From Escherichia coli (GTDB taxonomy: Bacteria > Pseudomonadota > Gammaproteobacteria > Enterobacterales > Enterobacteriaceae), in the NCBI RefSeq assembly GCF_030013595.1, contig NZ_CP122768.1: 64,000 bases of DNA; one strand, given 5' to 3'. The translations under genes were made by a program, and so were the position numbers. Position 1 is the first letter of the stretch, and each line of letters starts with the position of its first letter. The notes under the pieces were generated by a model that had not been told where the DNA came from, made no database searches, and was given only the letters and a program-made list of their open reading frames with translations. Below are positions 10,379 through 62,238 of the stretch, one piece after another.

Positions 10379-11803
<1,425 letters not shown>

Positions 11804-11806
11804 GGG

Positions 11807-14822: not shown

Positions 14823-15839
14823 ATGGCCGTTAACTTACTGAAAAAGAACTCACTCGCGCTGGTCGCTTCTCTGCTGCTGGCGGGCCATGTACAGGCAACG
14901 GAACTGCTGAACAGTTCTTATGACGTCTCCCGCGAGCTGTTTGCCGCCCTGAATCCGCCGTTTGAGCAACAATGGGCAAAAGATAACGGCGGCGACAAAC
15001 TGACGATAAAACAATCTCATGCAGGGTCATCAAAACAGGCGCTGGCGATTTTGCAGGGCTTAAAAGCAGACGTTGTCACTTATAACCAGGTGACCGACGT
15101 ACAAATCCTGCACGATAAAGGCAAGCTGATCCCGGCCGACTGGCAGTCGCGCCTGCCGAATAATAGCTCGCCGTTCTACTCCACCATGGGCTTCCTGGTG
15201 CGTAAGGGCAACCCGAAGAATATCCACGACTGGAACGACCTCGTGCGCTCCGACGTGAAGCTGATTTTCCCGAACCCAAAAACCTCCGGTAACGCGCGTT
15301 ATACCTATCTGGCGGCATGGGGCGCAGCGGATAAAGCTGACGGTGGCGACAAAGCCAAAACCGAACAGTTTATGACCCAGTTCCTGAAAAACGTTGAAGT
15401 GTTCGATACTGGCGGTCGTGGCGCGACCACCACTTTTGCCGAGCGCGGCCTGGGCGATGTGCTGATCAGCTTCGAGTCGGAAGTGAACAACATCCGCAAA
15501 CAGTATGAAGCGCAGGGCTTTGAAGTGGTGATTCCGAAAACCAACATTCTGGCGGAATTCCCGGTGGCGTGGGTCGATAAAAACGTGCAGGCCAACGGTA
15601 CGGAAAAAGCAGCAAAAGCCTACCTGAACTGGCTCTACAGCCCGCAGGCGCAGACCATCATCACCGACTATTACTACCGCGTAAATAACCCGGAAGTCAT
15701 GGACAAACTGAAAAACAAATTCCCGCAGACCGAACTGTTCCGCGTGGAAGACAAATTTGGCTCCTGGCCGGAAGTGATGAAAACCCACTTCACCAGCGGC
15801 GGCGAGTTAGACAAGCTGTTAGCGGCGGGGCGTAATTAA
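14823..15839 (+). CDS. cysP: periplasmic thiosulfate-binding protein
   Basis: 338-aa ORF with signal peptide; first gene of cysPUWAM. Confidence 0.93.
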
Positions 15840-16672: not shown

Positions 16673-17547
16673 TGGCGGAAGTGACACAGTTGAAGCGTTA
16701 TGACGCGCGCCCGATTAACTGGGGCAAATGGTTTCTGATTGGCATCGGGATGCTGGTTTCGGCGTTCATCCTGCTGGTGCCGATGATTTACATCTTCGTG
16801 CAGGCGTTCAGCAAAGGGCTGATGCCGGTTTTACAGAATCTGGCCGATCCGGACATGCTGCACGCCATCTGGCTGACGGTGATGATTGCGCTGATTGCCG
16901 TGCCGGTGAACCTGGTGTTCGGCATTCTGCTGGCCTGGCTGGTGACGCGCTTTAACTTCCCCGGACGCCAGTTGCTGCTGACGCTGCTGGATATTCCGTT
17001 TGCCGTATCGCCGGTGGTTGCCGGTCTGGTGTATCTGCTGTTTTACGGCTCTAACGGCCCGCTCGGTGGCTGGCTGGATGAACATAATCTGCAAATTATG
17101 TTCTCCTGGCCGGGAATGGTGCTGGTCACCATCTTCGTGACGTGTCCGTTTGTGGTGCGTGAGCTGGTGCCGGTGATGTTAAGCCAGGGCAGCCAGGAAG
17201 ACGAAGCGGCAATTTTGCTTGGCGCGTCTGGCTGGCAGATGTTTCGCCGCGTCACGCTGCCGAACATCCGCTGGGCGCTGCTTTATGGCGTGGTGCTGAC
17301 CAACGCCCGCGCGATTGGCGAGTTTGGTGCGGTGTCGGTGGTTTCCGGCTCGATTCGCGGCGAAACACTTTCGCTGCCGTTACAGATTGAATTGCTGGAG
17401 CAGGACTACAACACCGTCGGCTCCTTTACCGCTGCCGCGTTGTTGACGCTGATGGCGATTATCACCCTGTTTTTAAAGAGTATGTTGCAGTGGCGTCTGG
17501 AGAATCAGGAAAAACGCGCGCAGCAGGAGGAACATCATGAGCATTGA
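16672..17547 (+). CDS. cysW: sulfate/thiosulfate ABC transporter permease
   Basis: 291-aa polytopic ORF; start overlaps cysU stop by 1 nt. Confidence 0.93.
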
Positions 17548-18634
17548 GATTGCCAATATTAAGAAGTCTTTTGGTCGCACCCAGGTGCTGAACGATATCT
17601 CACTGGATATTCCTTCTGGTCAGATGGTCGCATTGCTGGGGCCGTCTGGTTCCGGGAAAACCACGCTGCTGCGGATTATCGCCGGGCTGGAGCATCAAAC
17701 CAGCGGGCATATTCGCTTCCACGGCACCGACGTCAGCCGCCTGCATGCGCGCGATCGTAAAGTTGGTTTCGTGTTCCAGCACTATGCGCTGTTCCGCCAT
17801 ATGACGGTGTTCGACAATATCGCTTTCGGCCTGACGGTGCTGCCGCGTCGCGAGCGCCCGAATGCCGCAGCCATCAAAGCGAAAGTGACAAACTTGCTGG
17901 AGATGGTGCAGCTTGCGCATCTGGCGGATCGTTATCCGGCACAGCTTTCCGGCGGGCAGAAACAGCGCGTGGCGCTGGCGCGTGCGCTGGCTGTAGAACC
18001 GCAAATTCTGCTGCTTGATGAACCGTTTGGCGCGCTGGATGCGCAGGTGCGTAAAGAGCTGCGTCGCTGGTTGCGTCAACTGCATGAAGAACTGAAATTT
18101 ACCAGCGTATTCGTGACCCATGACCAGGAAGAAGCGACCGAAGTAGCCGATCGTGTAGTGGTGATGAGCCAGGGCAATATCGAGCAGGCTGATGCGCCGG
18201 ATCAGGTATGGCGCGAACCAGCGACCCGCTTTGTGCTCGAATTTATGGGCGAAGTGAACCGCCTGCAGGGAACCATTCGCGGCGGGCAGTTCCATGTTGG
18301 CGCACATCGCTGGCCGCTGGGCTATACACCTGCGTATCAGGGGCCGGTGGATCTCTTCCTTCGTCCGTGGGAAGTGGATATCAGCCGCCGTACCAGCCTC
18401 GATTCGCCGCTGCCGGTACAGGTACTGGAAGCCAGCCCGAAAGGCCACTACACCCAATTAGTCGTGCAGCCGCTGGGGTGGTACAACGAAGCGCTGACGG
18501 TCGTGATGCACGGCGACGACGCCCCGCAACGTGGCGAGCGTTTATTCGTTGGTCTGCAACATGCGCGGCTGTATAACGGCGACGAGCGTATTGAAACCCG
18601 CGATGAGGAACTTGCTCTCGCACAAAGCGCCTGA
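17537..18634 (+). CDS. cysA: sulfate/thiosulfate ABC transporter ATP-binding protein
   Basis: 365-aa ORF; Walker [13 protein letters not shown] signature [15 protein letters not shown]; overlaps cysW by 11 nt. Confidence 0.95.
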
Positions 18635-43048: not shown

Positions 43049-44296
<1,248 letters not shown>

Positions 44297-44323
44297 TTGA
44301 ATGAGCGTCGCATCTGGCACTAT

Positions 44324-44412
<89 letters not shown>

Positions 44413-44436
44413 ATTGTGCTCCATTGGCAAATGTGT

Positions 44437-44763
44437 TTAATGGCGGTGTCCATGTCCGCGGCCTTTTCCGCGATGATCGTCACGATCGCGCCAGCCTTCA
44501 CGATAGCCACGCTCATACGCTTTACGCTTATCCCAGCCACGATGGTAGCCATTATCATGACGCCACCAGCGGTTCTTACGCCATTCATAATTGCGATGCC
44601 AGTAGTCACGGTCGCGCCAGTGACCACCGTCCCAGTAATTACCGTAATGATCGCGATCGCCAATTTGTAATTTGATTGATGGCAGTAGGGTGATTTCACC
44701 TGCGTTTGCCGCAAGCGGGGTAAATGCCATCAGGGCGGCCGCCAGAAACAGTGACCTGAACAT
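44437..44763 (-). CDS. ypeC: secreted low-complexity protein YpeC
   Basis: 108-aa ORF; signal peptide [21 protein letters not shown]; mature part rich in R/D/H/W/Y repeats ending [10 protein letters not shown]. Confidence 0.85.
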
Positions 44764-44877
44764 TGTTATTCTCCTTCACGATCGAAGCCGTCAGCGGCCT
44801 GTTAACGCAATATTACGGGGAGGTAAAGCCCCGTATCATCGCCATAACTCTTAAATCATAAAGGAGAGCATTTTTTG

Positions 44878-46134
44878 CTAAACGTTATCGTGGGGTGGCT
44901 GTTGCTTCGGACGATTGACCATCATCATCGGCTTACCTGCTAATAACAGCCATGCCGGAAGCATGACGATACAGAGCAGCGGTAGCAATGTGGTATTGGG
45001 TACAACGACTGCCGCCATAAAAAGACTTAACCAGCCATCGCGTGTTACCACCAGCACGATGCCGAGAATAGCGCAGGAAACGGTTATTGCCGCTGGAACG
45101 GCGGGAACGTGCTCATGCAGCATCAACCCTAATGCCACGCCGACAAACACTGCCGGGAAGATTCGCCCACCGCGAAAGCCACTGGCGGCAGCAACGACCA
45201 GGGCGGCAAGTTTAATTACCGCCAGCAAAAAGTAATCGCTGGTGCTGAAAGCCTGATTTGCCACCATCTGCTGCATCTCATCCAGCCCTTTAAACAGCGA
45301 AACTGGTCCACCAATAACCCCCAGAATACCGAGAATAAATCCGCCAATACCCAGCACGAGCACCGGATTTTTCATTTGATGCATCATCGCGTGCAACCGT
45401 GGTAAGCACCATACGGCGACCATCCCTGCTGCGATGGCAATCGCCGCGACAATTGCACCGCTGAGAATATCGGTCATTTCCATTTGTCCGTAATGCGCAA
45501 TGGGCAGTGAAAAATGGGGATGGAAAAATAATCCGGTAGTAAGTGCACCAGCTGCTGCCGCCATTAACGGCGCAAAAAGACGATCCCATAGCGGAACTTC
45601 ACTACTACCATTTAAGGTTTGCGAAAATATCAACGCCGCCGCAACAGGTGTGCCAAACAGCGCGCCGATGGTTCCGGCAGAGGCTAAAATAGTCCACTCC
45701 ATTCGGTTGACGCGCGGTAACAGACGAGCGCCAATGGCAACCGCAAGGGCGATATTGACGGTCATGATCGGATGTTCTGGCCCCAGGCTGACGCCACCAG
45801 CAAGACCAAGAATTAATGCTACGATAAGTCCTGGTAGCGCAGAGGGCGGAACTGGTGCGCCGATCAGCGGTTCACAGGCGGGGTCTGGTCCGGCATGACC
45901 CTGGCTGAAACGGATAACCAACCCCACCGCAATACCTGTTAGCGTTAATATGGCGATGATCCAGAAAGGTGAATCCTGAGCTATCCCCAGAGTTCCCGGC
46001 AGTCGTTGCCAGAGCAAATTCTGTAATACCGAGGCGATTTTCATCACCACAATCAGAATAAGACTGGACGCAATCCCAATTGCCACGGCGGGGAGCGATA
46101 ATAACAACATGGTTCTGGCTCGCGGATGGAGCAT
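44878..46134 (-). CDS. yfeO: putative ion channel/transporter YfeO (ClC-like)
   Basis: 418-aa polytopic ORF. Confidence 0.85.
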
Positions 46135-46337
46135 GTTCTATTCCTTATGCGGGGTCAGATACTTAGTTTGCCCAGCTTGCAAAAAGGCATCGCTGCAATT
46201 GGTGCTGAAACGATAAAGTAATTGTGTGACCCAGATCGATATTTACAGGGAGCCTGCCTTTCCGGCGTTGTTGTTATGCCCCCAGGTATTTACAGTGTGA
46301 GAAAGAATTATTTTGACTTTAGCGGAGCAGTTGAAGA

Positions 46338-47303
46338 ATGACAAAGTATGCATTAGTCGGTGATGTGGGCGGCACCAACGCACGTCTTGCTCTGTGTGAT
46401 ATTGCCAGTGGTGAAATCTCGCAGGCTAAGACCTATTCAGGGCTTGATTACCCCAGCCTCGAAGCGGTCATTCGCGTTTATCTTGAAGAACATAAGGTCG
46501 AGGTGAAAGACGGCTGTATTGCCATCGCTTGCCCAATTACCGGTGACTGGGTGGCAATGACCAACCATACCTGGGCGTTCTCAATTGCCGAAATGAAAAA
46601 GAATCTCGGTTTTAGCCATCTGGAAATTATTAACGATTTTACCGCTGTATCGATGGCGATCCCGATGCTGAAAAAAGAGCATCTGATTCAGTTTGGTGGC
46701 GCAGAACCGGTCGAAGGTAAGCCTATTGCGGTTTACGGTGCCGGAACGGGGCTTGGGGTTGCGCATCTGGTCCATGTCGATAAGCGTTGGGTAAGCTTGC
46801 CAGGCGAAGGCGGTCACGTTGATTTTGCGCCGAATAGTGAAGAAGAGGCCATTATCCTCGAAATACTGCGTGCAGAAATTGGTCATGTTTCGGCAGAGCG
46901 CGTGCTTTCTGGTCCTGGGCTGGTGAATTTGTATCGCGCGATTGTGAAAGCCGACAACCGCCTGCCAGAAAATCTCAAGCCAAAAGATATTACCGAACGT
47001 GCGCTGGCTGACAGCTGCACCGATTGCCGCCGCGCGTTGTCGCTGTTTTGCGTCATTATGGGCCGTTTTGGCGGCAATCTGGCGCTCAATCTCGGGACAT
47101 TTGGCGGCGTGTTTATTGCGGGTGGTATCGTGCCGCGCTTCCTTGAGTTCTTCAAAGCCTCTGGTTTCCGTGCCGCATTTGAAGATAAAGGGCGCTTTAA
47201 AGAATATGTCCATGATATTCCGGTGTATCTCATCGTCCATGACAATCCGGGCCTTCTTGGTTCCGGTGCACATTTACGCCAGACCTTAGGTCACATTCTG
47301 TAA
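46338..47303 (+). CDS. glk: glucokinase
   Basis: 321-aa ORF; N-terminal ATP-binding [14 protein letters not shown]. Confidence 0.95.
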
Positions 47304-47521
47304 CTCCTTCCTGTTATATCGGGAGGTAACTCTCCCGATAATCTTTTAAATCATACAGTTAATTCAATTTTTCTTTGTGTCCCCTCACAAGGCCGACCTG
47401 CGTCACACTTCCGTACAGCGGGATTAATTCTCCAGTAAATGCATTATTTGTCTGGTAACGGCGATTTGTTTTGCACGTTCATAATTTCACTCGTCAACTA
47501 TCACTGAATGAGGAATTAACG

Positions 47522-47848
47522 ATGAGTAAGAAACTGATTGCCTTATGTGCCTGCCCGATGGGCCTGGCTCACACCTTTATGGCCGCTCAGGCGCTGGAAG
47601 AAGCGGCGGTAGAAGCCGGTTATGAAGTGAAAATTGAAACCCAGGGCGCGGACGGCATCCAGAATCGTCTGACCGCGCAGGATATCGCCGAAGCGACCAT
47701 CATCATCCACTCCGTGGCGGTTACCCCGGAAGATAACGAACGTTTCGAATCACGCGACGTTTATGAAATCACTTTGCAGGATGCAATTAAAAACGCTGCG
47801 GGCATCATCAAAGAAATCGAAGAGATGATTGCCTCTGAACAACAGTAA
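47522..47848 (+). CDS. fryB: PTS fructose-like EIIB component
   Basis: 108 aa from ATG 47522; active-site Cys in LIALCACPMGLAHTFMAA. Confidence 0.88.
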   Translation: MSKKLIALCACPMGLAHTFMAAQALEEAAVEAGYEVKIETQGADGIQNRLTAQDIAEATIIIHSVAVTPEDNERFESRDVYEITLQDAIKNAAGIIKEIEEMIASEQQ

Positions 47849-47869
47849 TATTCGACAGGGATAATTGTT

Positions 47870-49117
47870 ATGGCCATTAAAAAACGCAGTGCAACCGTTG
47901 TGCCTGGCGCATCCGGTGCGGCAGCGGCAGTTAAGAATCCGCAGGCCTCTAAAAGCAGCTTCTGGGGTGAACTCCCGCAGCATGTGATGTCAGGGATTTC
48001 ACGCATGGTGTCGACCTTAATTATGGGCGGTGTGATCCTCGCTTTCAGCCAGCTTATTGCTTATAGCTGGCTTAAAATTCCTGCTGATATCGGCATCATG
48101 GATGCTCTTAATAGCGGGAAATTCTCCGGTTTCGACCTTTCCTTACTGAAATTTGCCTGGCTGTCGCAGTCCTTCGGCGGCGTGTTGTTTGGTTTCGCCA
48201 TTCCGATGTTTGCCGCTTTTGTGGCGAACTCTATCGGCGGCAAACTGGCGTTCCCGGCTGGTTTTATTGGCGGCTTGATGTCTACCCAGCCGACGCAACT
48301 GCTGAACTTCGATCCCAGCACTATGCAATGGGCGACCTCTTCGCCGGTGCCGTCCACCTTCATTGGTGCGCTGATTATTTCTATCGTTGCTGGTTACCTT
48401 GTGAAATGGATGAACCAGAAAATCCAGTTACCGGATTTCCTGTTAGCGTTCAAAACCACTTTTTTGCTACCGATTCTTTCCGCCATTTTTGTCATGCTGG
48501 CGATGTACTACGTCATCACCCCCTTTGGCGGCTGGATCAACGGCGGTATTCGTGCCGTGCTGACTGCCGCAGGTGAGAAGGGCGCGCTAATGTATGCGAT
48601 GGGGATCGCCGCGGCGACAGCAATCGACCTTGGTGGCCCGATCAACAAAGCAGCTGGTTTCGTTGCCTTCAGCTTTACCACGGACCACGTATTACCGGTC
48701 ACCGCACGTTCTATCGCTATCGTTATTCCGCCGATTGGTCTGGGTCTGGCGACCATTATTGACCGTCGTTTAACCGGCAAACGCCTGTTCAACGCTCAAC
48801 TTTATCCGCAGGGTAAGACCGCGATGTTCCTGGCCTTTATGGGGATTAGTGAGGGTGCGATTCCGTTTGCGCTGGAAAGCCCCATCACCGCCATCCCGTC
48901 GTATATGGTCGGCGCGATTGTCGGCTCAACTGCAGCTGTCTGGCTGGGCGCAGTGCAATGGTTCCCGGAATCCGCTATCTGGGCATGGCCGCTGGTCACT
49001 AACCTGGGCGTCTATATGGCGGGGATCGCGCTGGGGGCAGTCATTACTGCGCTGATGGTGGTGTTCCTGCGTCTGATGATGTTCCGTAAAGGCAAATTGT
49101 TAATCGATAGCCTGTAA
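47870..49117 (+). CDS. fryC: PTS fructose-like EIIC component
   Basis: 415-aa polytopic ORF downstream of fryB. Confidence 0.88.
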
Positions 49118-49131
49118 GAAGGAAAATCCAG

Positions 49132-50217
49132 ATGACATTACTCGCTTCGCTGCGTGACTGGCTTAAGGCGCAACAACTGGATGCGGTGCTTCTCTCCTCA
49201 CGGCAGAACAAACAGCCGCATCTGGGGATCTCCACCGGATCAGGCTATGTGGTGATTAGCCGTGAAAGTGCGCACATTCTGGTGGACTCGCGCTATTACG
49301 CGGATGTCGAAGCCCGCACGCAAGGTTACCAGCTACATTTGCTTGACGCGACGCACACGCTTGCAACCATCGTCAATAAAATCATTGCCGATGAGCAGTT
49401 GCAAACGCTCGGTTTTGAAGGCCAGCAGGTAAATTGGGAAACCGCGCACCGCTGGCAGTCTGAACTCAATGCGAAACTGGTAAGCGCCACGCCGGATGTG
49501 CTGCGGCAAATCAAAACGCCAGAGGAGGTGGAGAAAATCCGCCTCGCCTGTGGGATTGCCGATCGCGGAGCGGAGCATATTCGCCGCTTTATTCAGGCGG
49601 GGATGAGCGAATGCGAGATTGCTGCTGAACTGGAGTGGTTTATGCGCCAGCAGGGCGCAGAAAAAGCCTCTTTCGATACCATTGTCGCCAGTGGCTGGCG
49701 TGGGGCGCTGCCGCACGGCAAAGCCAGCGACAAGATTGTTGCAGCGGGCGAGTTTGTCACTCTCGATTTCGGTGCGCTGTATCAGGGTTACTGCTCTGAT
49801 ATGACGCGTACCTTGCTTGTGAATGGCGAAGGGGTGAGCGCCGAATTTCACCCGCTGTTTGACGTCTATCAGATTGTTTTGCAGGCACAGCTCGCAGCAA
49901 TCTCCGCGATTCGCCCCGGCGTGCGCTGCCAGCAGGTTGACGACGCCGCGCGCCGGGTGATTACCGAGGCTGGATTTGGCGACTATTTCGGTCATAACAC
50001 CGGTCATGCTATCGGTATTGAAGTCCATGAAGATCCGCGTTTTTCACCGCGGGACACCACGACGCTACAGCCAGGCATGTTACTGACCGTGGAGCCGGGG
50101 ATTTATTTGCCAGGGCAAGGGGGCGTGCGCATCGAAGATGTTGTGCTGGTCACCCCGCAAGGCGCAGAAGTGCTCTACGCCATGCCGAAAACAGTGTTGC
50201 TCACGGGAGAGGCATAA
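49132..50217 (+). CDS. ypdF: Xaa-Pro aminopeptidase (M24 family)
   Basis: 361-aa ORF; creatinase/prolidase N-terminal part plus M24 catalytic domain with metal ligands (…[16 protein letters not shown]…[13 protein letters not shown]…). Confidence 0.88.
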
Positions 50218-51254
50218 TGGATTTATCGTTATTAAAAGCGTTGAGCGAGGCAGATGCGATCGCCTCCTCGGAACAGGAAGTACGGCAGATCCTGCTGGAA
50301 GAAGCGGATCGCCTGCAAAAAGAAGTGCGATTTGATGGGCTGGGATCGGTGCTGATCCGACTCAATGAGTCGACAGGTCCGAAGGTGATGATCTGTGCGC
50401 ATATGGACGAAGTGGGATTTATGGTGCGCAGCATCTCCCGCGAAGGGGCGATTGATGTGCTGCCAGTTGGCAACGTGCGCATGGCTGCCCGACAGCTTCA
50501 GCCGGTGCGGATCACCACCCGTGAAGAGTGCAAAATACCTGGCCTGCTTGACGGCGACCGGCAGGGGAATGATGTCAGCGCCATGCGCGTGGACATTGGT
50601 GCGCGCTCGTATGACGAAGTGATGCAGGCGGGAATTCGTCCAGGCGATCGCGTCACCTTCGATACCACTTTTCAGGTTCTACCCCACCAGCGAGTGATGG
50701 GGAAAGCCTTTGATGACCGCCTCGGTTGCTACCTGCTGGTGACGTTACTGCGCGAACTACACAGCGCCGAACTGCCTGCGGAAGTGTGGCTGGTGGCCAG
50801 TTCCAGCGAAGAGGTGGGATTACGCGGCGGGCAAACCGCTACCCGTGCGGTTTCACCGGACGTTGCGATTGTGCTGGATACCGCCTGCTGGGCGAAAAAC
50901 TTTGATTATGGCGCGGCTAACCATCGTCAGATTGGTAACGGGCCGATGCTGGTGTTAAGCGACAAGTCGCTGATTGCGCCGCCAAAACTTACCGCGTGGA
51001 TTGAAACCGTGGCGGCAGAAATTGGCGTACCGTTGCAGGCGGATATGTTCAGCAACGGTGGCACGGACGGTGGGGCGGTGCACTTAACCGGCACTGGCGT
51101 ACCCACAGTGGTGATGGGGCCTGCCACCCGCCACGGACATTGCGCCGCATCGATTGCCGATTGCCGCGACATTTTGCAGATGCAGCAACTTTTATCTGCC
51201 CTTATTCAACGTCTTACCCGTGAGACGGTTGTTCAACTGACGGATTTCAGATGA
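50217..51254 (+). CDS. ypdE: M42-family aminopeptidase
   Basis: 345-aa ORF; start overlaps ypdF stop by 1 nt (TAATG). Confidence 0.88.
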
Positions 51255-51278
51255 TCTCCTGATTAACCCGGAGCGGTT

Positions 51279-53774
51279 ATGTTAACGATTCAATTTCTCT
51301 GTCCTTTGCCTAACGGTATTCATGCTCGTCCGGCGTGGGAACTTAAAGAACAGTGCAGCCAGTGGCAAAGCGAAATCACTTTTATTAACCATCGCCAGAA
51401 CGCAAAGGCCGATGCGAAAAGTTCGCTGGCGCTGATTGGCACCGGCACTTTATTTAATGACAGTTGCAGCCTGAACATTAGCGGCAGCGATGAAGAGCAG
51501 GCGCGGCGCGTGCTGGAAGAGTACATCCAGGTGCGCTTTATCGACAGCGACAGCATCCAGCCAACACAGGCAGAACTGACGGCGCATCCGCTGCCGCGTT
51601 CATTAAGCCGTCTGAATCCTGATTTACTGTACGGCAATGTGCTGGCAAGCGGCGTCGGCGTGGGTACGCTGACCCTGTTACAGAGCGACAGCCTCGATAG
51701 TTATCGGGTAATCCCTGCCAGTGCGCAAGACTCCACCCGGCTGGAGCACAGCCTGGCAACGCTTGCCGAGCAACTGAACCAGCAACTGCGCGAGCGTGAC
51801 GGCGAAAGCAAAACTATCCTCAGCGCCCATTTGTCGCTGATCCAGGATGATGAATTTGCAGGCAATATCCGTCACCTGATGGCAGAACAGCATCAGGGGC
51901 TGGGGGCGGCGGTCATCAGCAATATGGAGCAGGTTTGTGCCAAACTTTCTGCTTCTGCCAGCGATTATCTGCGCGAGCGGGTCAGCGACATTCGCGATAT
52001 CAGCGAACAGCTGCTGCATATCACCTGGCCGGAACTGAAGCCGCGCAACAATCTGGTGCTGGAAAAACCGACTATTCTGGTGGCCGAGGATTTAACCCCA
52101 AGCCAGTTTTTGAGCCTCGATCTAAAAAATCTTGCGGGCATGATTCTGGAGAAAACCGGGCGCACCTCGCATACACTGATTCTGGCCCGCGCCTCGGCGA
52201 TCCCGGTTCTTAGCGGCCTGCCGCTGGATGCGATTGCCCGTTATGCCGGGCAACCGGCGGTGCTTGACGCCCAGTGCGGCGTGCTGGCGATTAACCCGAA
52301 TGACGCGGTGAGCGGTTATTATCAGGTCGCGCAGACGCTGGCGGATAAACGCCAAAAACAACAGGCGCAGGCTGCCGCGCAGCTGGCCTATTCCCGTGAT
52401 AACAAGCGTATTGATATTGCGGCGAATATCGGCACCGCTCTGGAAGCGCCAGGCGCGTTTGCCAACGGCGCGGAAGGCGTTGGGCTGTTTCGTACCGAAA
52501 TGCTCTATATGGATCGCGACAGCGCGCCGGACGAGCAGGAGCAATTTGAAGCCTACCAGCAGGTGCTACTGGCAGCGGGCGACAAGCCGATTATCTTCCG
52601 CACGATGGACATCGGCGGCGATAAAAGCATTCCTTATCTGAATATTCCCCAGGAAGAGAACCCGTTCCTCGGCTATCGCGCGGTACGTATTTACCCGGAA
52701 TTTGCTGGCCTGTTCCGCACTCAACTGCGGGCCATTTTGCGCGCCGCCAGTTTCGGCAACGCCCAGTTGATGATCCCAATGGTTCACAGCCTCGATCAGA
52801 TCTTATGGGTGAAGGGCGAGATCCAAAAAGCGATCGTTGAGCTTAAGCGCGATGGCCTGCGTCATGCAGAGACGATTACGCTGGGTATCATGGTGGAAGT
52901 GCCGTCGGTGTGCTACATCATCGACCACTTCTGCGATGAGGTCGATTTCTTCAGTATCGGTTCTAACGATATGACCCAGTATCTGTATGCGGTCGATCGT
53001 AATAACCCGCGCGTATCGCCGCTGTATAACCCGATTACGCCATCGTTCCTGCGCATGTTGCAGCAGATTGTTACCACTGCGCATCAGCGCGGCAAATGGG
53101 TAGGTATTTGCGGTGAACTGGGCGGTGAAAGTCGTTATCTGCCTCTACTGCTTGGGCTGGGCCTGGACGAGTTAAGCATGAGTAGCCCGCGCATTCCGGC
53201 GGTGAAAAGCCAGCTTCGTCAACTGGATAGCGAGGCGTGTCGGGAACTGGCGCGTCAGGCGTGCGAGTGCCGCAGTGCGCAGGAAATTGAAGCGTTACTC
53301 ACCGCCTTTACGCCGGAAGAAGACGTTCGCCCACTGCTGGCGCTGGAGAATATCTTTGTTGATCAGTACTTTAGTAATAAAGAGCAGGCGATCCAGTTCC
53401 TGTGCGGCAACCTTGGTGTTAACGGGCGTACTGAACATCCGTTTGAGCTGGAAGAAGATGTCTGGCAGCGGGAAGAGATTGTTACTACTGGCGTTGGTTT
53501 TGGCGTGGCGATCCCGCACACCAAATCTCAGTGGATCCGTCATTCCAGTATCAGCATTGCCCGGCTGGTGAAACCGGTTGACTGGCAGTCAGAGATGGGC
53601 GAAGTCGAACTGGTGATCATGCTGACGTTGGGTGCTAACGAAGGGATGAACCATGTGAAAGTCTTCTCGCAGCTGGCGCGCAAATTGGTGAATAAAAACT
53701 TCCGCCAGTCGTTGTTTGCCGCGCAAGATGCGCAAAGCATCCTGACGCTGCTGGAAACGGAATTAACCTTCTGA
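51279..53774 (+). CDS. fryA: PTS multiphosphoryl transfer protein (HPr-like, enzyme I-like and EIIA domains fused)
   Basis: 831-aa ORF; N-terminal HPr-like PNGIHARPAWELKE, EI-like active site GRTSHTLILARASAIPVLSG, C-terminal EIIA-like region. Confidence 0.9.
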   Translation: MLTIQFLCPLPNGIHARPAWELKEQCSQWQSEITFINHRQNAKADAKSSLALIGTGTLFNDSCSLNISGSDEEQARRVLEEYIQVRFIDSDSIQPTQAELTAHPLPRSLSRLNPDLLYGNVLASGVGVGTLTLLQSDSLDSYRVIPASAQDSTRLEHSLATLAEQLNQQLRERDGESKTILSAHLSLIQDDEFAGNIRHLMAEQHQGLGAAVISNMEQVCAKLSASASDYLRERVSDIRDISEQLLHITWPELKPRNNLVLEKPTILVAEDLTPSQFLSLDLKNLAGMILEKTGRTSHTLILARASAIPVLSGLPLDAIARYAGQPAVLDAQCGVLAINPNDAVSGYYQVAQTLADKRQKQQAQAAAQLAYSRDNKRIDIAANIGTALEAPGAFANGAEGVGLFRTEMLYMDRDSAPDEQEQFEAYQQVLLAAGDKPIIFRTMDIGGDKSIPYLNIPQEENPFLGYRAVRIYPEFAGLFRTQLRAILRAASFGNAQLMIPMVHSLDQILWVKGEIQKAIVELKRDGLRHAETITLGIMVEVPSVCYIIDHFCDEVDFFSIGSNDMTQYLYAVDRNNPRVSPLYNPITPSFLRMLQQIVTTAHQRGKWVGICGELGGESRYLPLLLGLGLDELSMSSPRIPAVKSQLRQLDSEACRELARQACECRSAQEIEALLTAFTPEEDVRPLLALENIFVDQYFSNKEQAIQFLCGNLGVNGRTEHPFELEEDVWQREEIVTTGVGFGVAIPHTKSQWIRHSSISIARLVKPVDWQSEMGEVELVIMLTLGANEGMNHVKVFSQLARKLVNKNFRQSLFAAQDAQSILTLLETELTF

Positions 53775-53776
53775 CG

Positions 53777-54634
53777 TTAGCCCTGAAAACGGGCGCTGTA
53801 CTCTCCCGGCGTCAGGCCAAACTGACGCCGGAAGACGCGACAAAAATAGTCGCTGTCCGGAAAGCCGCAACGCTGCGCCACTTCATGAATCGACAGATGA
53901 TATTTCTGCAAAATCATCCTCGCCTTCGCCATTCGCACCCAACGCACATATTCGATAAAACGCATTGTTCCATGCTGCGCAAACAGTTTTGACAGATGAT
54001 TGGGCGTGATATTAAAAAACAGCGCCACGCTCTCACGGGTGAGCGGCTGGGCATAATTATCCTGAACCCAGTTACAAATGCTGTGATAAAGAAAATCGCC
54101 GCGCGGCTGCGAATTGCCCGGCGGCATATTCACCACGTTGCGGCAAAGATGCAGCAAACTTAACACCAGCGGCTGAATGATATTCTGCTCCAGCGGCGAA
54201 CGGCTAAGATGGGTGAGGGCAGTAAGCATTGCTTCACCTTCGCCGCGTTGCAGGCTGGGAAGTTGGATCTGGCGAGCAGGATGCAACAACGACGTGGTGC
54301 GGCTATCGTAAAACGATAACCCAAGCCAGGTCGGCGCGAATACCAGGCTTAACAGCATTACCGGTTTGTTGTTGACCGGTAAATTAGCCGCGCGTGCCGG
54401 AATAAACAGCATTTCTCCTTCCACCATACGTTGCTGCTTTGCTTCCAGCAGATTGCCGTATTCGCCGCGTAGCACGATATCCAGACGGGGAAAATCAATA
54501 CATAAACTGCCCACTGGCAATGAGGCAGGCTGGCTGGCAAACCAGACGCGCCCCAGTAGTTGCGGGTTAAGCACCAGGCCGCTGAACAGATCGGCGAAAA
54601 ATTGTTGATCGGCGGGCAAGCCTGGTGCTTTCAT
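53777..54634 (-). CDS. ypdC: AraC-family transcriptional regulator
   Basis: 285-aa ORF; C-terminal AraC HTH (...IHEVAQRCGFPDSDYFCRVFRRQFGLTPGEY). Confidence 0.88.
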   Translation of the reverse strand: MKAPGLPADQQFFADLFSGLVLNPQLLGRVWFASQPASLPVGSLCIDFPRLDIVLRGEYGNLLEAKQQRMVEGEMLFIPARAANLPVNNKPVMLLSLVFAPTWLGLSFYDSRTTSLLHPARQIQLPSLQRGEGEAMLTALTHLSRSPLEQNIIQPLVLSLLHLCRNVVNMPPGNSQPRGDFLYHSICNWVQDNYAQPLTRESVALFFNITPNHLSKLFAQHGTMRFIEYVRWVRMAKARMILQKYHLSIHEVAQRCGFPDSDYFCRVFRRQFGLTPGEYSARFQG

Positions 54635-54646
54635 GAAAGTTCCCGA

Positions 54647-55381
54647 TTAAAGATGCATTAACTGGCGGAATTCTTTAACTTTGCTGCGGCTGACCGGCAC
54701 TTCAAAATCCAGATCTTTCAGCCGCAGAATATAGGTGTTATTAAACCACGGTTCGATCTCGCGGATTTTGTTCAGATTGACACAAAATGAGCGATGGCAG
54801 CGGAAAAAATGCGACGGCGGCAGCTTGCTGCAAAACTCGGTAATGTTCATCGGCATTACGTAGGATTCACGCCGCGTATAGACAAAGGTCATTTTCTCGT
54901 GCGCTTCGGCGTAATAGATATCGTTAATTGGCGTGACAATGATTCGCTCATCTTTCACCAGATTAATGGTGTCATTCTCACGCGTTACCGTCGCGGCAGG
55001 CGTACTGCTGGTCTGCTGTTGTTGCCAGGCTGCTTCCAGTTTTTGCAGCATCCCGGTAATGCGTGACTCCTGATACGGTTTGAGAATGTAGTCAAACGCC
55101 TCCAGTTCAAACGCTTCTACCGCATGTTCTTTCCACGCGGTGATAAACACAATAAATGGTTTATGGGCGAACTGGCTGATGTTTTGTGCCAGCAACACAC
55201 CATCCAGCGACGGAATATTGATATCCAGAAAAATGGCGTCGACGCGGTTATGCTGCAAAAACTTCAACACGTCCAGACCGTCGTCAAAGGTGCCGACAAT
55301 CTCCATCTGGCTGTGCTCTTTAATTAGCCAGCTCAGTTCCTGTTGTGCCAGGAATTCGTCTTCAACAATGATGACTTTCAC
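54647..55381 (-). CDS. ypdB: LytTR-family response regulator
   Basis: 244 aa from GTG 55379-55381 (MKVIIVEDEFLAQQ...); receiver domain with D at FLDINIP; C-terminal LytTR DNA-binding domain. Confidence 0.88.
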   Translation of the reverse strand: MKVIIVEDEFLAQQELSWLIKEHSQMEIVGTFDDGLDVLKFLQHNRVDAIFLDINIPSLDGVLLAQNISQFAHKPFIVFITAWKEHAVEAFELEAFDYILKPYQESRITGMLQKLEAAWQQQQTSSTPAATVTRENDTINLVKDERIIVTPINDIYYAEAHEKMTFVYTRRESYVMPMNITEFCSKLPPSHFFRCHRSFCVNLNKIREIEPWFNNTYILRLKDLDFEVPVSRSKVKEFRQLMHL

Positions 55382-55395
55382 AATATCACTCCGGC

Positions 55396-57093
55396 TCAAA
55401 GCAATAATGTAGCCTGTGAGGCGACTGGGGTGCGTTGGTTAGGAATGTAAAACGCAATTTCCGTTCCTGGTTCCAGGCGGCGGATATGCAGCCCCTCGCC
55501 ATACAATAACTTCACACGATGATGGACATTCAGCAGGCCAATTTTATTGCCCGGCATTTCATTCGCTTCGACCCGCTCAATCACCTTTGGATCGATGCCG
55601 TGCCCGGTATCTCGCACCGCAATACGTACCCGATTACCGCACTCTGCAACGCTGATGGTGACAACGCCTTTACCTTTGCAAGGCTGGATACCGTGGACAA
55701 TGGCGTTTTCCACCAACGGCTGGATCAGCAGGCTGGGAATGCAGCAATTCACCTCTTCATCAATATCATAGATAACCGTCAGCTTGTCGCCAAAGCGGGC
55801 CTGCTCAATGGCAATATAGTCTTTAATTTGATACAGCTCTTTTTTGATATCGATTTGCTCATCGTCTTTTAATTCAATGTTATAGCGCAGATAACGCGAC
55901 AGATTAAAGATCAGCTGGCGAGCGGTATCCGGATTCAGACGGATTGACGATGAAATAGCGTTCAAAGCGTTAAACAGGAAATGGGGATTAATTTTGCTTT
56001 GCAGGGCGCGAAGCTCTGCCTTATTTGCCATTTCACGTAGCTGCTCGGCGCGTGAAACCTCCAGTTGCGTGGAGATGATTTGCGACAGACCGACCGCCAT
56101 TTCCTGTAATGATGACGTAATCTGATGCGCGTGGCAGTAGTAAATTTTCAGTGTTCCGGTCACAACGCCTTTCTCCCACAATGGGATCACCAGCATGGAA
56201 TGAATCTCTGGTGTGCGGTGGGCTTCATCATTGTTTTTAATGATGATTTTTCCGTAATTCATCGCCTGTCGGGTAGTCGGGCTAATGAAGTCATCGCCAT
56301 TCTGATAGTTGTGTTCACCCACGCCAACATAGGCCAGCACATGATCGGTATTGGTAATCGCCACCGCATCGGCATGAATATCATCGCGGATAATTTCACA
56401 AACTTTGCGTAATGACTCGCTATTGACATGGCGAAACAGCGGCAGCGTTTTGTTGGCGATATCCAGCGCCAGCTTGGCCTGCCGCGCGGCGCTGGCCTCT
56501 TTTTCGCCCTCAACGCTTTGCACCAGCAGCACAATAAAGCCGATACAGACGCTACCGAGGATCATCGGAATCCCGATTTTAGAGACGATATCGATCCCCA
56601 ACGCGGTAGTTGGTGCCCAGACAATCACCAGAATCATGGTCAACGTTTCACATAACATGCCGCCGAGAATACCGACGCGCCAGCGCTGTGCTTTGGGGAT
56701 TTTCAGGTTGATCCAGCCCGATATACAACCCGCCAGAATGCTGGTGATAAAGCAGGGGATCGCCGTCACGCCGCCGATATCAATTAAATACCGGTGAATA
56801 CCCGCAATCACGCCGGTAATGATGCCTACCCACGGGCCAAACAGAATCCCGCCTGACATCACCGCGATAATACGAACGTTCACTAGCGAGCCTTCTACGG
56901 GAACGCCGGACCAGGTGCTGAACAGGGCAAACAGCGAGAAAATGGCGGTAACAGCGAGCAACTCTTTTGGGGAGTGCGCCGACTTGTGCAACAGTTCGCG
57001 AAACAGGCGGATACGGATGAGAAAGAACAGGCAGATAAGCATTAACGCTGCCCGATCGAAGACCGCCAGCAGCATGTTGAATATTTCGTGCAC
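55396..57093 (-). CDS. ypdA: LytS-type sensor histidine kinase
   Basis: 565-aa ORF from GTG; multi-TM N-terminus, GAF-like middle, His-kinase H-box region [18 protein letters not shown] and ATPase domain. Confidence 0.88.
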
Positions 57094-57469
57094 GGGTGAC
57101 TCTGAATAAGGATTAAACCTCTATGATAGGTAACCTGAAGGCTGATGACCAGCAGGCCGTTTTTGAGGAAAAACCACAATTTTAAAAGGGGATTGAAAGA
57201 TAAATGGTGTATTAGCAATGCATCTCTTGATAATGCACATCTGCTTGGTAAATTTATTGAAATTATAATGTTAATAAAATGAGTGGTAATTTTCTTGTTA
57301 GCGCAGATAAATTTCCTGTTTTTGAAGTGGAGTTCCTCATTTAAAGCCATTGATAAAAATGTTCTAAAACGCTGGACAGACAGAAATTAATCAGGCTATT
57401 TTCAAAACAGCCACCATCGTGGCAGCGTCGCTCGGACGGTCCGGGCGCTAACGTTAATCTGAGGAAATT

Positions 57470-58708
57470 ATGGCTGACACTCGCCCTGAACGTCGCTTTA
57501 CGCGCATTGATCGTCTCCCGCCCTACGTTTTTAATATTACCGCTGAACTGAAAATGGCTGCGCGTCGGCGCGGCGAAGATATTATCGATTTCAGTATGGG
57601 TAACCCGGACGGTGCGACTCCGCCGCATATCGTCGAAAAATTATGTACGGTGGCCCAGCGCCCGGACACGCATGGTTACTCCACGTCACGCGGCATTCCG
57701 CGGCTACGTCGCGCCATTTCCCGCTGGTATCAGGATCGCTACGACGTCGAGATCGACCCGGAATCAGAAGCCATCGTCACCATTGGTTCGAAAGAGGGAC
57801 TGGCGCATCTGATGCTGGCGACGCTGGATCATGGTGACACTGTACTAGTGCCTAATCCAAGCTACCCGATTCATATTTACGGCGCGGTGATTGCCGGGGC
57901 GCAGGTACGCTCAGTGCCGCTGGTGGAAGGTGTCGATTTCTTCAACGAACTGGAACGCGCCATTCGCGAAAGTTATCCGAAACCGAAGATGATGATCCTC
58001 GGCTTCCCGTCGAACCCAACCGCGCAATGCGTGGAACTGGAATTCTTTGAGAAGGTTGTGGCGCTGGCAAAACGCTACGATGTGCTGGTGGTCCATGACC
58101 TGGCCTATGCCGATATCGTCTACGATGGCTGGAAAGCGCCGTCAATCATGCAGGTGCCGGGCGCACGCGACGTGGCGGTCGAGTTCTTTACCCTGTCGAA
58201 AAGTTACAACATGGCGGGCTGGCGTATCGGCTTTATGGTTGGCAACAAAACGCTGGTCAGCGCGTTGGCACGTATTAAAAGCTATCACGATTACGGCACC
58301 TTTACGCCGTTGCAGGTGGCAGCGATTGCGGCGCTGGAGGGCGATCAACAGTGCGTGCGCGACATTGCTGAACAGTACAAACGCCGCCGTGATGTACTGG
58401 TAAAAGGGCTGCATGAAGCGGGCTGGATGGTCGAAATGCCGAAGGCTTCGATGTATGTCTGGGCGAAAATCCCGGAACCGTATGCTGCCATGGGCTCGCT
58501 GGAATTTGCCAAGAAGCTGCTGAACGAAGCGAAGGTCTGTGTCTCTCCGGGGATTGGCTTTGGCGACTACGGCGACACGCATGTTCGCTTTGCACTGATT
58601 GAAAACCGCGACCGTATTCGTCAGGCGATTCGTGGGATTAAAGCGATGTTCCGTGCCGATGGTTTACTACCCGCCAGCAGCAAACATATTCACGAAAACG
58701 CGGAATAA
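57470..58708 (+). CDS. alaC: glutamate-pyruvate aminotransferase
   Basis: 412-aa ORF; fold-type I aminotransferase with PLP-lysine in [14 protein letters not shown]. Confidence 0.9.
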
Positions 58709-58726
58709 ACACCGACCTCAAAAATG

Positions 58727-58756
58727 CAAACAGGAGCCTGATGGCTCCTGTTTTTC
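58727..58756 (+). terminator. intrinsic terminator after alaC
   Basis: CAGGAGCC-TGAT-GGCTCCTG hairpin followed by TTTTTCATT. Confidence 0.7.
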
Positions 58757-58772
58757 ATTGCACAGTTTGCTT

Positions 58773-58844
58773 TTAGATCATCAGGGCAAAAGTACCGGCC
58801 CAAACGATGACCATAAAAGAAATGCCCATAAAGAAATATTTCAC
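58773..58844 (-). CDS. ypdK: 23-aa small membrane protein YpdK
   Basis: GTG 58842-58844 with GGAGAG RBS upstream; translation MKYFFMGISFMVIVWAGTFALMI; stop TAA 58773-58775; below the 60-aa track cut-off. Confidence 0.65.
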   Translation of the reverse strand: MKYFFMGISFMVIVWAGTFALMI

Positions 58845-59129
58845 TTTACATCTCTCCGCGTAATTACTGTTACGCCTGAATGACTTCATTACACCTGATA
58901 CAGTGAGTTGACACCGGGCAAAACGACCTTAAAAGTCCTGTATTTTACCGTGGGCATCACCCCAGAATTCTGAGCTAAACTGCTCCAGACGGCGCTAATG
59001 TACGCCTAAAACTGAAACGAGACAAGAGGCATTTTCTTATTTACTTTTAGTAACTTACAGGTGTCTCATATCGGCGACAGTTTAATTTCTGACGGTAATA
59101 ATTAGAGATTCAGCGAAGGAAAAAACCTT

Positions 59130-59167
59130 AAGAAAAAAGCCATAAAAACCATGAGGTTATTATGGCT
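59130..59167 (-). terminator. intrinsic terminator after lpxP
   Basis: 8-bp stem AGCCATAA (59138-59145) / TTATGGCT (59158-59165), followed on the minus strand by a U-run (plus-strand A-run 59132-59137). Confidence 0.55.
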
Positions 59168-59199
59168 GATTTGAGGAGGGAAAGAGTAAGAGCAGTTTG

Positions 59200-60120
59200 T
59201 TAAATGTATAGCGACGATTCTCCCACCGGGCGCGTTTTAAAGCGACGGTGGATCCAGAGGTACTGCTCCGGTGCGCGCATGATCTCTTTTTCGATAATCT
59301 TGTTCATATAGGCAGCGGCTTGATTTTCATCTGCCGGGTAGCCTTCCATCTCTGGGGTGATGTACAAACGATATCCGCTGTAATCCGCTTTTCTTACCAT
59401 CGTTACGGTTAACATGGCTGCGCCAGAGAGACGTGAAAGGACATACGTACCATTGGTTGTGGCGACATTTTCCACCGCAAAGAACGGCGCGAAGGAGCTG
59501 CCTTTACGACCATAATCCTGATCGGGAGCAAACCATACCGCTTCACCTTTCTTCAGTGCACCAACAATGCCGCGCAGATTATTTCTGCCGATCATCGCTT
59601 TGTTAGAGCGCATGCGCCCACGGGTCTGCACCCATTCCATCAGCTGATTATTATGTGGACGATAGGTAGCCATCATTGGTTGACACAGTCCCATCACGCG
59701 GCCGCCCAGTTCCAGCGACATAAAATGGACGCCGACAACCATTACGCCGCGATTTTGCATTTGTGCGTGTTTAAGGTTATCCAGCCCTTCAACATCAAAC
59801 CATTTGCGTACGCGACTGTCGGGCCAGAACCACGCCATGCCGGTTTCTACCAGCGCCATGCCGAGTGAACGAAAGTTTTCGGCGATCATCTTCTCGCGCT
59901 CTTCAGCAGAATGCTGCGGGAAACAAAGTTCCAGGTTTTTACGGGCGATAGATTCACGCCGTTTCAGGAATGGTCGCGCCATTGCGCCAATACGCGTGCC
60001 GAGAAAGCAGAGAACAGGATAAGGAAGCTGTACCCAAAGCCAGAGTACACCAAGCCCAAACCATGTGAGCCAGTAGCGAGGATGCAGAAACTCGCGGGAA
60101 AATTTGCATTTTGGAAACAT
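59200..60120 (-). CDS. lpxP: lipid A palmitoleoyl-ACP acyltransferase (cold-induced)
   Basis: 306 aa from ATG 60118-60120 (MFPKCKFSREFLHPRYWLTWFGLGVLWLW...); LpxL/LpxP late acyltransferase family. Confidence 0.9.
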   Translation of the reverse strand: MFPKCKFSREFLHPRYWLTWFGLGVLWLWVQLPYPVLCFLGTRIGAMARPFLKRRESIARKNLELCFPQHSAEEREKMIAENFRSLGMALVETGMAWFWPDSRVRKWFDVEGLDNLKHAQMQNRGVMVVGVHFMSLELGGRVMGLCQPMMATYRPHNNQLMEWVQTRGRMRSNKAMIGRNNLRGIVGALKKGEAVWFAPDQDYGRKGSSFAPFFAVENVATTNGTYVLSRLSGAAMLTVTMVRKADYSGYRLYITPEMEGYPADENQAAAYMNKIIEKEIMRAPEQYLWIHRRFKTRPVGESSLYI

Positions 60121-60791: not shown

Positions 60792-61067
60792 CTATCGCAC
60801 AGGATGAATAAGATAATTCGCCTTTGTCGGAAAAGGGGGCGTGATGTCTTCTGTGAGATTTAATGGTGGCGCATCTTCTCTCATCTTAAACAAAATCGCC
60901 TGTGATGGCTGAAGTTTTGTAGAATGAGTTGTCGTCATCACTGACGTTTTTTCTGTCTCTTTATAGCTCGTCTCACTTCCACCACCAGAAATGGAAAATG
61001 CAAAAACATTGCATGCCATAATAGAGACCAATAAAAATAAGCTAAAAAGCATTAAGTTTACTTTCAT
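60792..61067 (-). CDS. ypdI: putative lipoprotein YpdI
   Basis: 91-aa ORF; signal peptide with lipobox-like IMACN. Confidence 0.85.
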   Translation of the reverse strand: MKVNLMLFSLFLLVSIMACNVFAFSISGGGSETSYKETEKTSVMTTTHSTKLQPSQAILFKMREDAPPLNLTEDITPPFPTKANYLIHPVR

Positions 61068-61209
61068 AGAAAGTTATCCTGAGAATGGCTCACTGAGAAC
61101 CTACGATGTTATGGCTGTATTTACATTTAATTAATCAGTATTTACATCGATATAATAAATGACATCTCTTTGTGGTATATAAGAATAGTTCTCTGCGACA
61201 GGAAGCATA

Positions 61210-61227
61210 TTCCTACAATTGTAAGAC
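61210..61227 (+). promoter_or_regulatory. EvgA-box-like inverted repeat upstream of yfdX
   Basis: TTCCTACAATTGTAAGAC fits the remembered EvgA consensus TTCYTACA-NN-TGTARGAA at 16 of 18 positions; a second partial copy CTACAACTGTAAGAT lies about 61253-61267. Confidence 0.5.
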
Positions 61228-61362
61228 TAAAATACTTCTTGCGATAATAACTACAACTGTAAGATAACCCTTTCAAAATGACCGTTGCTCTCTGATTTCT
61301 CATTTCATGCTCACCCAATATGATGGCGGCGTTTTCTAAAACTGTTAAAGAATGAGGTAAGT

Positions 61363-61995
61363 ATGAAACGTTTAATTATGGCTACGATGGTCACAGCAAT
61401 TCTGGCATCTTCAACTGTATGGGCGGCTGATAATGCACCGGTAGCGGCACAACAGCAAACTCAGCAAGTTCAGCAAACCCAGAAAACGGCAGCAGCAGAG
61501 CGTATCTCTGAACAAGGTTTATATGCGATGCGTGACGTGCAGGTAGCGCGCCTGGCTCTGTTTCATGGCGATCCGGAAAAGGCAAAAGAACTGACCAATG
61601 AAGCTTCAGCTTTGTTGTCAGATGACAGTACCGAATGGGCAAAGTTCGCTAAGCCAGGTAAAAAAACCAATGTCAATGATGACCAATATATTGTCATTAA
61701 TGCATCTATCGGAATTTCTGAGAGTTATGTAGCGACACCCGAAAAAGAAGCCGCGATAAAAATTGCCAACGAAAAAATGGCGAAAGGGGATAAAAAGGGC
61801 GCAATGGAAGAGCTTCGCCTGGCCGGTGTTGGCGTAATGGAAAACCAATATCTGATGCCGCTCAAACAGACTCGTAATGCACTTGCTGATGCGCAGAAAC
61901 TGCTTGATAAAAAGCAATACTACGAGGCAAACCTGGCGCTTAAAGGTGCGGAAGATGGAATCATCGTCGATAGCGAAGCACTGTTTGTGAACTAA
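61363..61995 (+). CDS. yfdX: periplasmic protein YfdX
   Basis: 210-aa ORF; signal peptide [21 protein letters not shown]. Confidence 0.9.
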
Positions 61996-62238
61996 TGCTG
62001 ACAGGCAGTATATTGAGGTAAAGGATTTAACTCCCTCCAGCCGACAATTTTTTATGACCACAATACGACAGATTGTGGTCATAAAATTATTTGGCGCTCG
62101 CGGTTCTATAAACTCGCATTTTATCTTCCTCAAAGTAAACCGCAATAATCCCGTGTCATCACAAATCATTTATTATGTTATGTTTTATGGTACGCTTTAA
62201 AAAGCGTAATCATACCCTTACTTGTAAATCACCGGCGC

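Follow-up and report, generated by a model that had tools for sequence, protein, structure and literature searches.

Comparative sequence evidence for YpdC as a candidate activator of the Escherichia coli fry operon and for a composite ypdABC

The AraC-type regulator YpdC of Escherichia coli is probably a direct, effector-dependent activator of the fryB promoter (PfryB), predicted to act through a candidate operator at 47421–47459 of the DNA stretch analyzed here (64,000 nt of E. coli contig NZ_CP122768.1; hereafter the window, to which all coordinates refer unless a locus number is given). The ypdC gene lies on the minus strand downstream of ypdA and ypdB, which encode the two-component system YpdA/YpdB, and converges on fryA, the last gene of the fry operon, which combines a phosphotransferase system (PTS) with two aminopeptidases. 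YpdC is put forward as the fry activator because of the synteny of the two, the footprint at the promoter, the architecture of the protein and the paralogy with the yijO–frw module. A sequence-only reading of the window had proposed that YpdC or the two-component system controls the operon; that hypothesis is probably right for YpdC and is wrong for YpdA/YpdB. The locus and its genes are already known, as are the two-component system and the mechanism of AraC regulators. Added here are a specific candidate operator and the recognition of ypdABC as an apparently chimeric operon, and the gain is incremental.

Results

Gene neighborhood of ypdC

The surroundings of ypdC were surveyed in one genome per species, in a scan seeded on the YpdC alignment only. 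This gave 35 orthologous loci, with YpdC 58–98% identical to that of the window, into which the window proteins were placed by tblastn. In about 30 of these species-level loci ypdC was adjacent to and convergent with fryA. At the site between alaC and glk, ypdC–fry was found in Escherichia, Citrobacter, Salmonella, Pseudocitrobacter and Kluyvera. The full order alaC-ypdA-ypdB-ypdC, then convergent fryA-ypdE-ypdF-fryC-fryB, then glk, was seen in Escherichia, most Citrobacter, Pseudocitrobacter and Kluyvera. Salmonella enterica subsp. arizonae, subsp. diarizonae and one further S. enterica assembly carried alaC-ypdC-fry-glk without ypdAB. Traces remained in their alaC–ypdC spacer, namely parts of the sequence that precedes ypdA and 76 nt from the 3' end of ypdB; ypdAB was therefore deleted there, and ypdC–fry retained. 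At another site, between rnk and rna, 18 loci (Enterobacter, Lelliottia, Pluralibacter, Superficieibacter, Huaxiibacter, Buttiauxella and other Enterobacteriaceae) lacked ypdAB and had ypdC facing the same set of five fry genes in convergent orientation. Overall, ypdC–fry without ypdAB was present in about 20 loci.

The two-component genes were also found without ypdC–fry beside them. YpdA orthologues 88–92% identical to the window protein occurred in Enterobacter, Cronobacter, Phytobacter and Atlantibacter, and the local order in Enterobacter and Cronobacter was alaC-ypdA-ypdB-glk, ypdC and fry both being absent from the interval between ypdB and glk. What lay upstream of ypdC varied (ypdB, a gene for a flavin reductase or for an alpha/beta hydrolase, or a divergent alaC), and its convergent downstream neighbor was fryA throughout, apart from exceptions in Citrobacter and Kluyvera. 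The conserved partner fryA, the changing upstream gene and the dissociation of ypdAB from fry in both directions argue that the conserved unit is ypdC plus fry. On this comparison ypdABC appears to be a chimeric operon, two unrelated modules side by side, and the best explanation is that they were joined in the Escherichia/Citrobacter lineage. Across the Enterobacter loci L028, L030 and L042, YpdA shared ~92% identity with its E. coli counterpart, YpdC 65–68% and FryA 73–76%. Judged by such identities, the ypdAB and ypdC–fry modules evolve at very different rates.

The fryB promoter

The 220 nt upstream of fryB were aligned for 20 loci drawn from both chromosomal contexts and at least 10 genera. 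Most of this region was unalignable, and three conserved blocks emerged. The central block, of 39 nt, consists of two directly repeated half-sites with the consensus GCATyAwTTnTCyrGTAA at a 20-bp phase. A −10 hexamer, CATAAT, follows it, with 20 nt (19 in four loci) between the proximal half-site and this hexamer. No −35 hexamer was recognizable at the promoter. The upstream block, nGA-N6-TCACAyTT, is a putative CRP site. A CRP-dependent promoter would have a 22-bp site, TGTGA-N6-TCACA, at a class I position; the right half of the block is conserved, and the left half keeps only GA, with three core mismatches. Transcription of fryB would start near 47492, about 7 nt after the −10 hexamer. Relative to this predicted start the half-sites would lie at about −71 to −33, and the TCACA block, whose position depends on the same start, would be centered at about −92.5.

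Between the two clades of promoters, identity was 0.73 for the repeat, 0.74 for the CRP-like block and 1.00 for the −10 hexamer; it was 0.27–0.34 for the intervening spacers and the 5' untranslated region of fryB. A position weight matrix built from the rnk/rna-clade promoters alone scored 50.3 bits at the repeat versus 10.0 bits for the next best position on both strands of the 64-kb window, and the reciprocal cross-clade test gave a like outcome. Half-site pairs were found at fryB promoters only, in the ~20 kb of each locus and in the window. The K-12 fryB promoter is identical to that of the window through all three blocks. No YpdC-type autoregulatory site was found upstream of ypdC or ypdA. 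A weak operator resemblance at 54638–54676 (4.7 bits), which the Salmonella remnant has not preserved, was dismissed.

The YpdC protein

YpdC of the window is 99% identical to K-12 YpdC. Its C-terminus matched HTH_18 (PF12833, 3.6e-20) and HTH_AraC (PF00165, 1.2e-12) over residues 207–281. The AlphaFold2 (AF2) model (predicted local distance difference test score, pLDDT, 82) comprises a beta-barrel (residues 30–126), two long helices (132–168) and a double helix-turn-helix (HTH; 178–281). Foldseek matched the full-length model to Rns, CsvR and ToxT and its N-terminal part to the RhaR regulatory domain and to cupins; for the DNA-binding domain, fold matches reached template modeling (TM) scores of 0.8–0.9. 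Sequence matches to PDB structures (AraC, SoxS, MarA and GadX) spanned the DNA-binding domain only. By its model, in which helices join a cupin-like N-terminal domain to the double HTH, YpdC is a member of the effector-responsive two-domain class of the AraC/XylS family (AraC, RhaS/RhaR, ToxT, Rns), where the N-terminal domain serves in sensing and dimerization. None of the NCBIfam equivalogs (AraC, RhaR, RhaS, MelR, FeaR and others) was reached, the best scores being 54–70 bits versus cut-offs of 208–850. By these scores YpdC has no orthologue among the named AraC-family regulators. It has been listed among the uncharacterized AraC-family factors of K-12 (PMC4797297). A search of a limited literature collection found no published link between YpdC and fry, which does not prove the absence of one elsewhere.

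Many Shigella and some E. coli protein clusters (P0074, P0078 and P0093–P0119) hold ypdC alleles of ~170–250 amino acids. These are 97–99% identical to YpdC of the window, cover 59–66% of it and mostly have no HTH Pfam domain, which suggests recurrent pseudogenization of ypdC.

The paralogous yijO–frw module

A distant FryA relative (P0243, 45% identity) is encoded in a frw-like cluster. At the end of this cluster lies a convergent gene of AraC type, whose product shares 35% identity with YpdC over both domains. Another relative, P0242, lies on a 5.5-kb contig too short to inform. In K-12, PtsA and FryA are 45% identical, and YijO, a paralogue of YpdC over its full length, has 35% identity to it (residues 16–284, E 1e-47). 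The yijO gene is convergent with frwD, with a 14-bp overlap (11467–11480 of K-12 locus L047). In frw (ptsA/frwCB-pflDC-frwD), as in fry, the regulator gene converges on the last operon gene and abuts or overlaps it. The modules differ in that frw encodes the pyruvate formate-lyase-like PflD/PflC, whereas fry encodes the aminopeptidases YpdE/YpdF, and in that ptsA is divergent from the frw operon, whereas fryA is the last gene of fry.

The frwC promoter carries TCCAGTAA...TCCACTGT at a 20-bp phase, with an 11-nt core in common with the distal fry half-site. The K-12 ptsA–frwC intergenic region (L047, 6222–6530) holds GTCCAGTAAATGG...TATCCACTGT, with TCCAG/TCCAC cores 20 bp apart. This fryB-like repeat may be an operator for YijO, which is equally uncharacterized (PMC4797297). 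Regulator and PTS appear to have been duplicated together, and such a joint duplication would lend independent support to the functional pairing of YpdC with fry.

The YpdA/YpdB two-component system

YpdA matched the Pfam families 5TM-5TMR_LYT (2.1e-42), GAF (5.8e-7), His_kinase (PF06580, 4.4e-25) and HATPase_c (7.4e-11), and YpdB matched Response_reg (2.1e-24) and LytTR (1e-34). The window YpdA is 100% identical to a cluster named YpdA. Kinase and regulator domain sets both match, and YpdA/YpdB is the LytS/LytTR two-component system PyrSR, a low-affinity sensor that responds to pyruvate (PMC4847170, PMC7660256, PMC9504724) and activates yhjX, a gene at another place in the chromosome. YpdB binds the direct repeat GGCATTTCAT-N11-GGCATTTCAT in the yhjX promoter (PMC4847170), and yhjX has been described as its sole target (PMC4847170; PMC7660256). 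With up to two mismatches allowed, no such operator was present in the fryB promoter (47304–47521, which is exactly the glk–fryB intergenic region). Across the window the YpdB motif gave 69 matches with at most two mismatches versus 83.5 expected, i.e., no enrichment. A perfect single copy at 55553 lies inside ypdA, has no partner repeat and was taken as chance. A direct role for YpdA/YpdB as controller of the fry operon is not supported.

The fryA–ypdC junction

The stop-to-stop gap between fryA and ypdC was −4 to +13 bp in 24 of the 35 loci, in both chromosomal contexts (L002–L040). Abutting convergence seems to be a conserved trait of the ypdC/yijO regulator–PTS family. A terminator scan found no canonical intrinsic terminator around the junction on either strand. 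Given the 2-bp gap in the window and the lack of a terminator-like site, the fry and ypdC transcripts should therefore each end inside the opposite gene.

A perfect 10-bp inverted repeat in the 3' end of ypdC falls within the codons for RRQFGLTPG, where the rare CGG codon is used; no U-tract follows it on either strand. On the plus strand, the RNA of 53760–53860 folds at −42.3 kcal/mol (z = −5.6), and the nucleotide sequence of the inverted repeat is kept in most genera. Codon identity was 0.67 over ypdC codons 261–280 and averaged 0.51 for the whole gene. An RNA-level constraint on the repeat was judged unconvincing, as synonymous conservation is only modestly raised and fryA shows comparable peaks. 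An Rfam scan of 44000–60000 at gathering thresholds returned no RNA family. The inverted repeat possibly acts in 3'-end formation of the fry transcript or in transcriptional interference. It is doubtful that the conserved convergence is a functional design in which fry transcription runs antisense into ypdC and lowers YpdC. Under such a design fry RNA would pass through the hairpin, and YpdC would be reduced via polymerase collision or antisense RNA. This would amount to built-in negative feedback or a pulse generator on YpdC, and in E. coli the end of the ypdABC transcript would also be disturbed by fry induction.

Some Citrobacter and Kluyvera genomes carry other genes at the junction, which looks like a point of insertion. 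In locus L036 the insert (10856–17700) encodes formate dehydrogenase subunits, a cytochrome b561 and a dienelactone hydrolase. That of L007 (10859–20855) encodes LysR- and IclR-type proteins, a dehydratase and a GntP permease, and 6519–14742 of L016 likewise holds unrelated genes between ypdC and fryA.

Locus and gene identities

The window is E. coli chromosome, and its genes were identified by open reading frames (ORFs), Pfam, RefSeq annotation and alignment to complete E. coli genomes (Table 1). The LytS-type kinase, LytTR regulator and AraC-type regulator that had been read from the letters on the minus strand directly after fryA, convergent to the fry operon, are borne out by coordinates and Pfam matches and by stop codons that face each other across 2 bp. 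All three are real core E. coli genes, already annotated, and not chance ORFs. The annotated order in matching genomes is mntH, ypeC, yfeO, glk, fryB, fryC, ypdF, ypdE, fryA, ypdC, ypdB, ypdA, alaC. The NCBI annotation pipeline (PGAP) labels fryA as ptsP, and the K-12 RefSeq names are pyrS (ypdA), pyrR (ypdB) and 'putative AraC-type regulator YpdC'.

The stretch 53000–58000 was matched in 5,422 of 5,426 complete E. coli genomes. Identity was 100% for two of them only (pig isolates from Winchester, UK) and 95–99% for the rest, the best among the 5,421 other records listed being ~98.7% identical. With only two identical genomes and the next best at that level, this strain's allele of the stretch is taken to be unusually divergent. 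The program-made ORF of ypdB reaches a TTG at 55399, overlapping the ypdA stop, and the annotated GTG at 55381 leaves a 14-nt gap after ypdA. From the ypdB stop to the ypdC ATG there are 12 nt, with a weak GGGA ribosome-binding site before ypdC and no evident promoter in the gap. In L001, the genome identical to the window, the annotation places a transposase of the IS4-like ISVsa5 family between yfdY and yfdX (16861–18069; the equivalent in the window would be ~60860–62068).

Table 1. Features of the fry–ypdABC region, in window coordinates.
Feature	Position	Strand	Description	Basis
CRP-like site	47389–47410	+	strong right half TCACACTT (47403–47410), weak left half	CRP consensus
Candidate YpdC operator	47421–47459	+	direct repeat of 18–19-bp half-sites, GGATTAATTCTCCAGTAAA (47421–47439) and GCATTATTTGTCTGGTAAC (47441–47459)	
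fryB −10 hexamer	47480–47485	+	CATAAT, invariant in 20/20 aligned promoters	
fry operon	47522–53774	+	fryB-fryC-ypdF-ypdE-fryA	ORFs, annotation, NCBIfam and Pfam contexts
fryB	47522–47848	+	PTS IIB	
fryC	47870–49117	+	PTS IIC	
ypdF	49132–50217	+	M24 aminopeptidase	
ypdE	50217–51254	+	M42 aminopeptidase	
fryA	51279–53774	+	fused HPr-EI-IIA protein	
Convergent junction	53772–53779		fryA stop TGA 53772–53774, 2-bp gap, ypdC stop TAA 53777–53779	sequence
ypdC	53777–54634	−	AraC/XylS-family regulator, 285 amino acids	ORF, Pfam, AF2 model
Perfect 10-bp inverted repeat	53806–53831		CCGGCGTCAG-GCCAAA-CTGACGCCGG, in ypdC 3' end, 32 nt past fryA stop	
ypdB (pyrR)	54647–55381	−	LytTR-type response regulator, 244 amino acids from annotated GTG	Pfam, RefSeq
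ypdA (pyrS)	55396–57093	−	LytS-type sensor histidine kinase, 565 amino acids	ORF, Pfam
alaC–ypdA intergenic region	57094–57469		presumed ypdABC promoter; best sigma70-like match TTACCA-16-TATAAT, 57289–57262, − strand	consensus scan only

Discussion

We propose that a YpdC dimer, with an effector held in the cupin-like N-terminal domain, would bind both half-sites of the fryB repeat. The proximal half-site abuts the position of the missing −35 element, and YpdC bound there would recruit RNA polymerase to the CATAAT hexamer. CRP at about −92.5 would probably assist YpdC, as at araBAD and rhaBAD. Because ypdC lies 12 nt behind ypdB, it is probably co-transcribed with ypdAB in E. coli, from the ypdA promoter. 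Such co-transcription would couple the abundance of YpdC, though not its specificity, to ypdAB, and fry need not be a YpdB target.

Direct control of fry by the two-component system, with phosphorylated YpdB bound at the fryB promoter, is by contrast largely refuted and can be given hardly any credence. The ypdABC genes do lie directly after fryA in E. coli, and, pyruvate being the product of PTS phosphotransfer, a thematic link to a pyruvate-sensing system can be imagined. Against this stand the single described target, yhjX (PMC4847170; PMC7660256), the lack of a GGCATTTCAT-N11-GGCATTTCAT match in the glk–fryB intergenic region, and the dissociation of ypdAB and fry both ways across genera. 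It is here that the sequence-only proposal fails, and synteny, the conserved repeat and the yijO–frw pair support its other half. YpdC could alternatively be a third part of the YpdAB pyruvate pathway, modulating for example yhjX or ypdAB expression, its adjacency to fry being incidental. The literature treats ypdABC as one operon (PMC2731931) and has used ypdABC deletion strains (PMC10653868), which fits this idea, as do the short gap behind ypdB and the lack of an evident promoter of its own for ypdC in E. coli. We nevertheless consider it quite improbable: Enterobacter and Cronobacter keep 88–92% identical ypdAB orthologues without ypdC, ypdC orthologues that survive without ypdAB are then always found with fry, and no half-site-like element lies upstream of ypdA.

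The remaining explanation is that there is no regulatory link at all, the gene order being inherited, another factor using the PfryB repeat, and YpdC acting elsewhere or decaying. Several observations favor it or weigh against YpdC as the fry activator. A ChIP-exo (chromatin immunoprecipitation with exonuclease) study of 40 K-12 factors reported zero YpdC peaks, fryB included; its authors suggested that YpdC was inactive in their conditions (PMC8464067). In Citrobacter amalonaticus the genes after ypdABC are unrelated for at least 10 kb and do not include fry, and other Citrobacter and Kluyvera genomes tolerate 0.3–8 kb inserted between ypdC and fryA. The comparative support is essentially one relocation plus vertical conservation, not many independent events. 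The −33 and −71 positions hang on a start for which the −10 hexamer is the only anchor, and some other regulator could be the one that uses the direct repeat. Shigella and some E. coli have truncated ypdC alleles without the HTH, which likewise fit a gene in decay. Set against these points, ypdC and fry remained paired when their chromosomal site changed, and they still are in loci where YpdC identity is as low as 58%. The direct repeat is non-palindromic and overlaps the −35 position, which is characteristic of AraC/XylS regulators, and no AraC-type gene other than ypdC is shared by all these loci. The paralogous yijO–frw pair has the same layout. Absence of a link therefore seems unlikely to us, and direct activation of fry by YpdC remains the reading that we favor.

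Fry belongs to the fructose-like PTS systems of E. coli that are called 'cryptic', and neither its substrate nor the YpdC ligand has been established (PMC5364489). YpdC is among the few K-12 AraC-family factors without a known target. Its assignment to fry would offer a handle for turning the operon on and then seeking the Fry substrate, which, as a guess from the two aminopeptidases, could be glycated or fructosyl peptides. If ypdABC is chimeric, deletion strains used in pyruvate-sensing work would also have lost YpdC, an unrelated regulator.

Comparison with known systems

The ypdAB genes of the window are the same system as PyrSR, with no difference; its known output is yhjX and not the neighboring fry operon. 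For YpdC the closest parallels are the sugar regulators of the AraC/XylS family. At araBAD and rhaBAD a non-palindromic direct repeat abuts the −35 element and a CRP site lies one step upstream. Like AraC, RhaS and RhaR, YpdC in its model pairs a cupin-like N-terminal domain with a double HTH, and PfryB likewise has two direct-repeat half-sites set against the missing −35 and a CRP-like site at about −92.5. The half-site phase is 20 bp at fryB versus 21 bp for AraC and 33 bp for RhaS, and ypdC converges on the 3' end of its presumed target operon, unlike the genes of AraC/RhaS-type regulators, which are divergent from the promoter. By this resemblance, the geometry of PfryB is predicted to be an AraC/XylS class-II layout.

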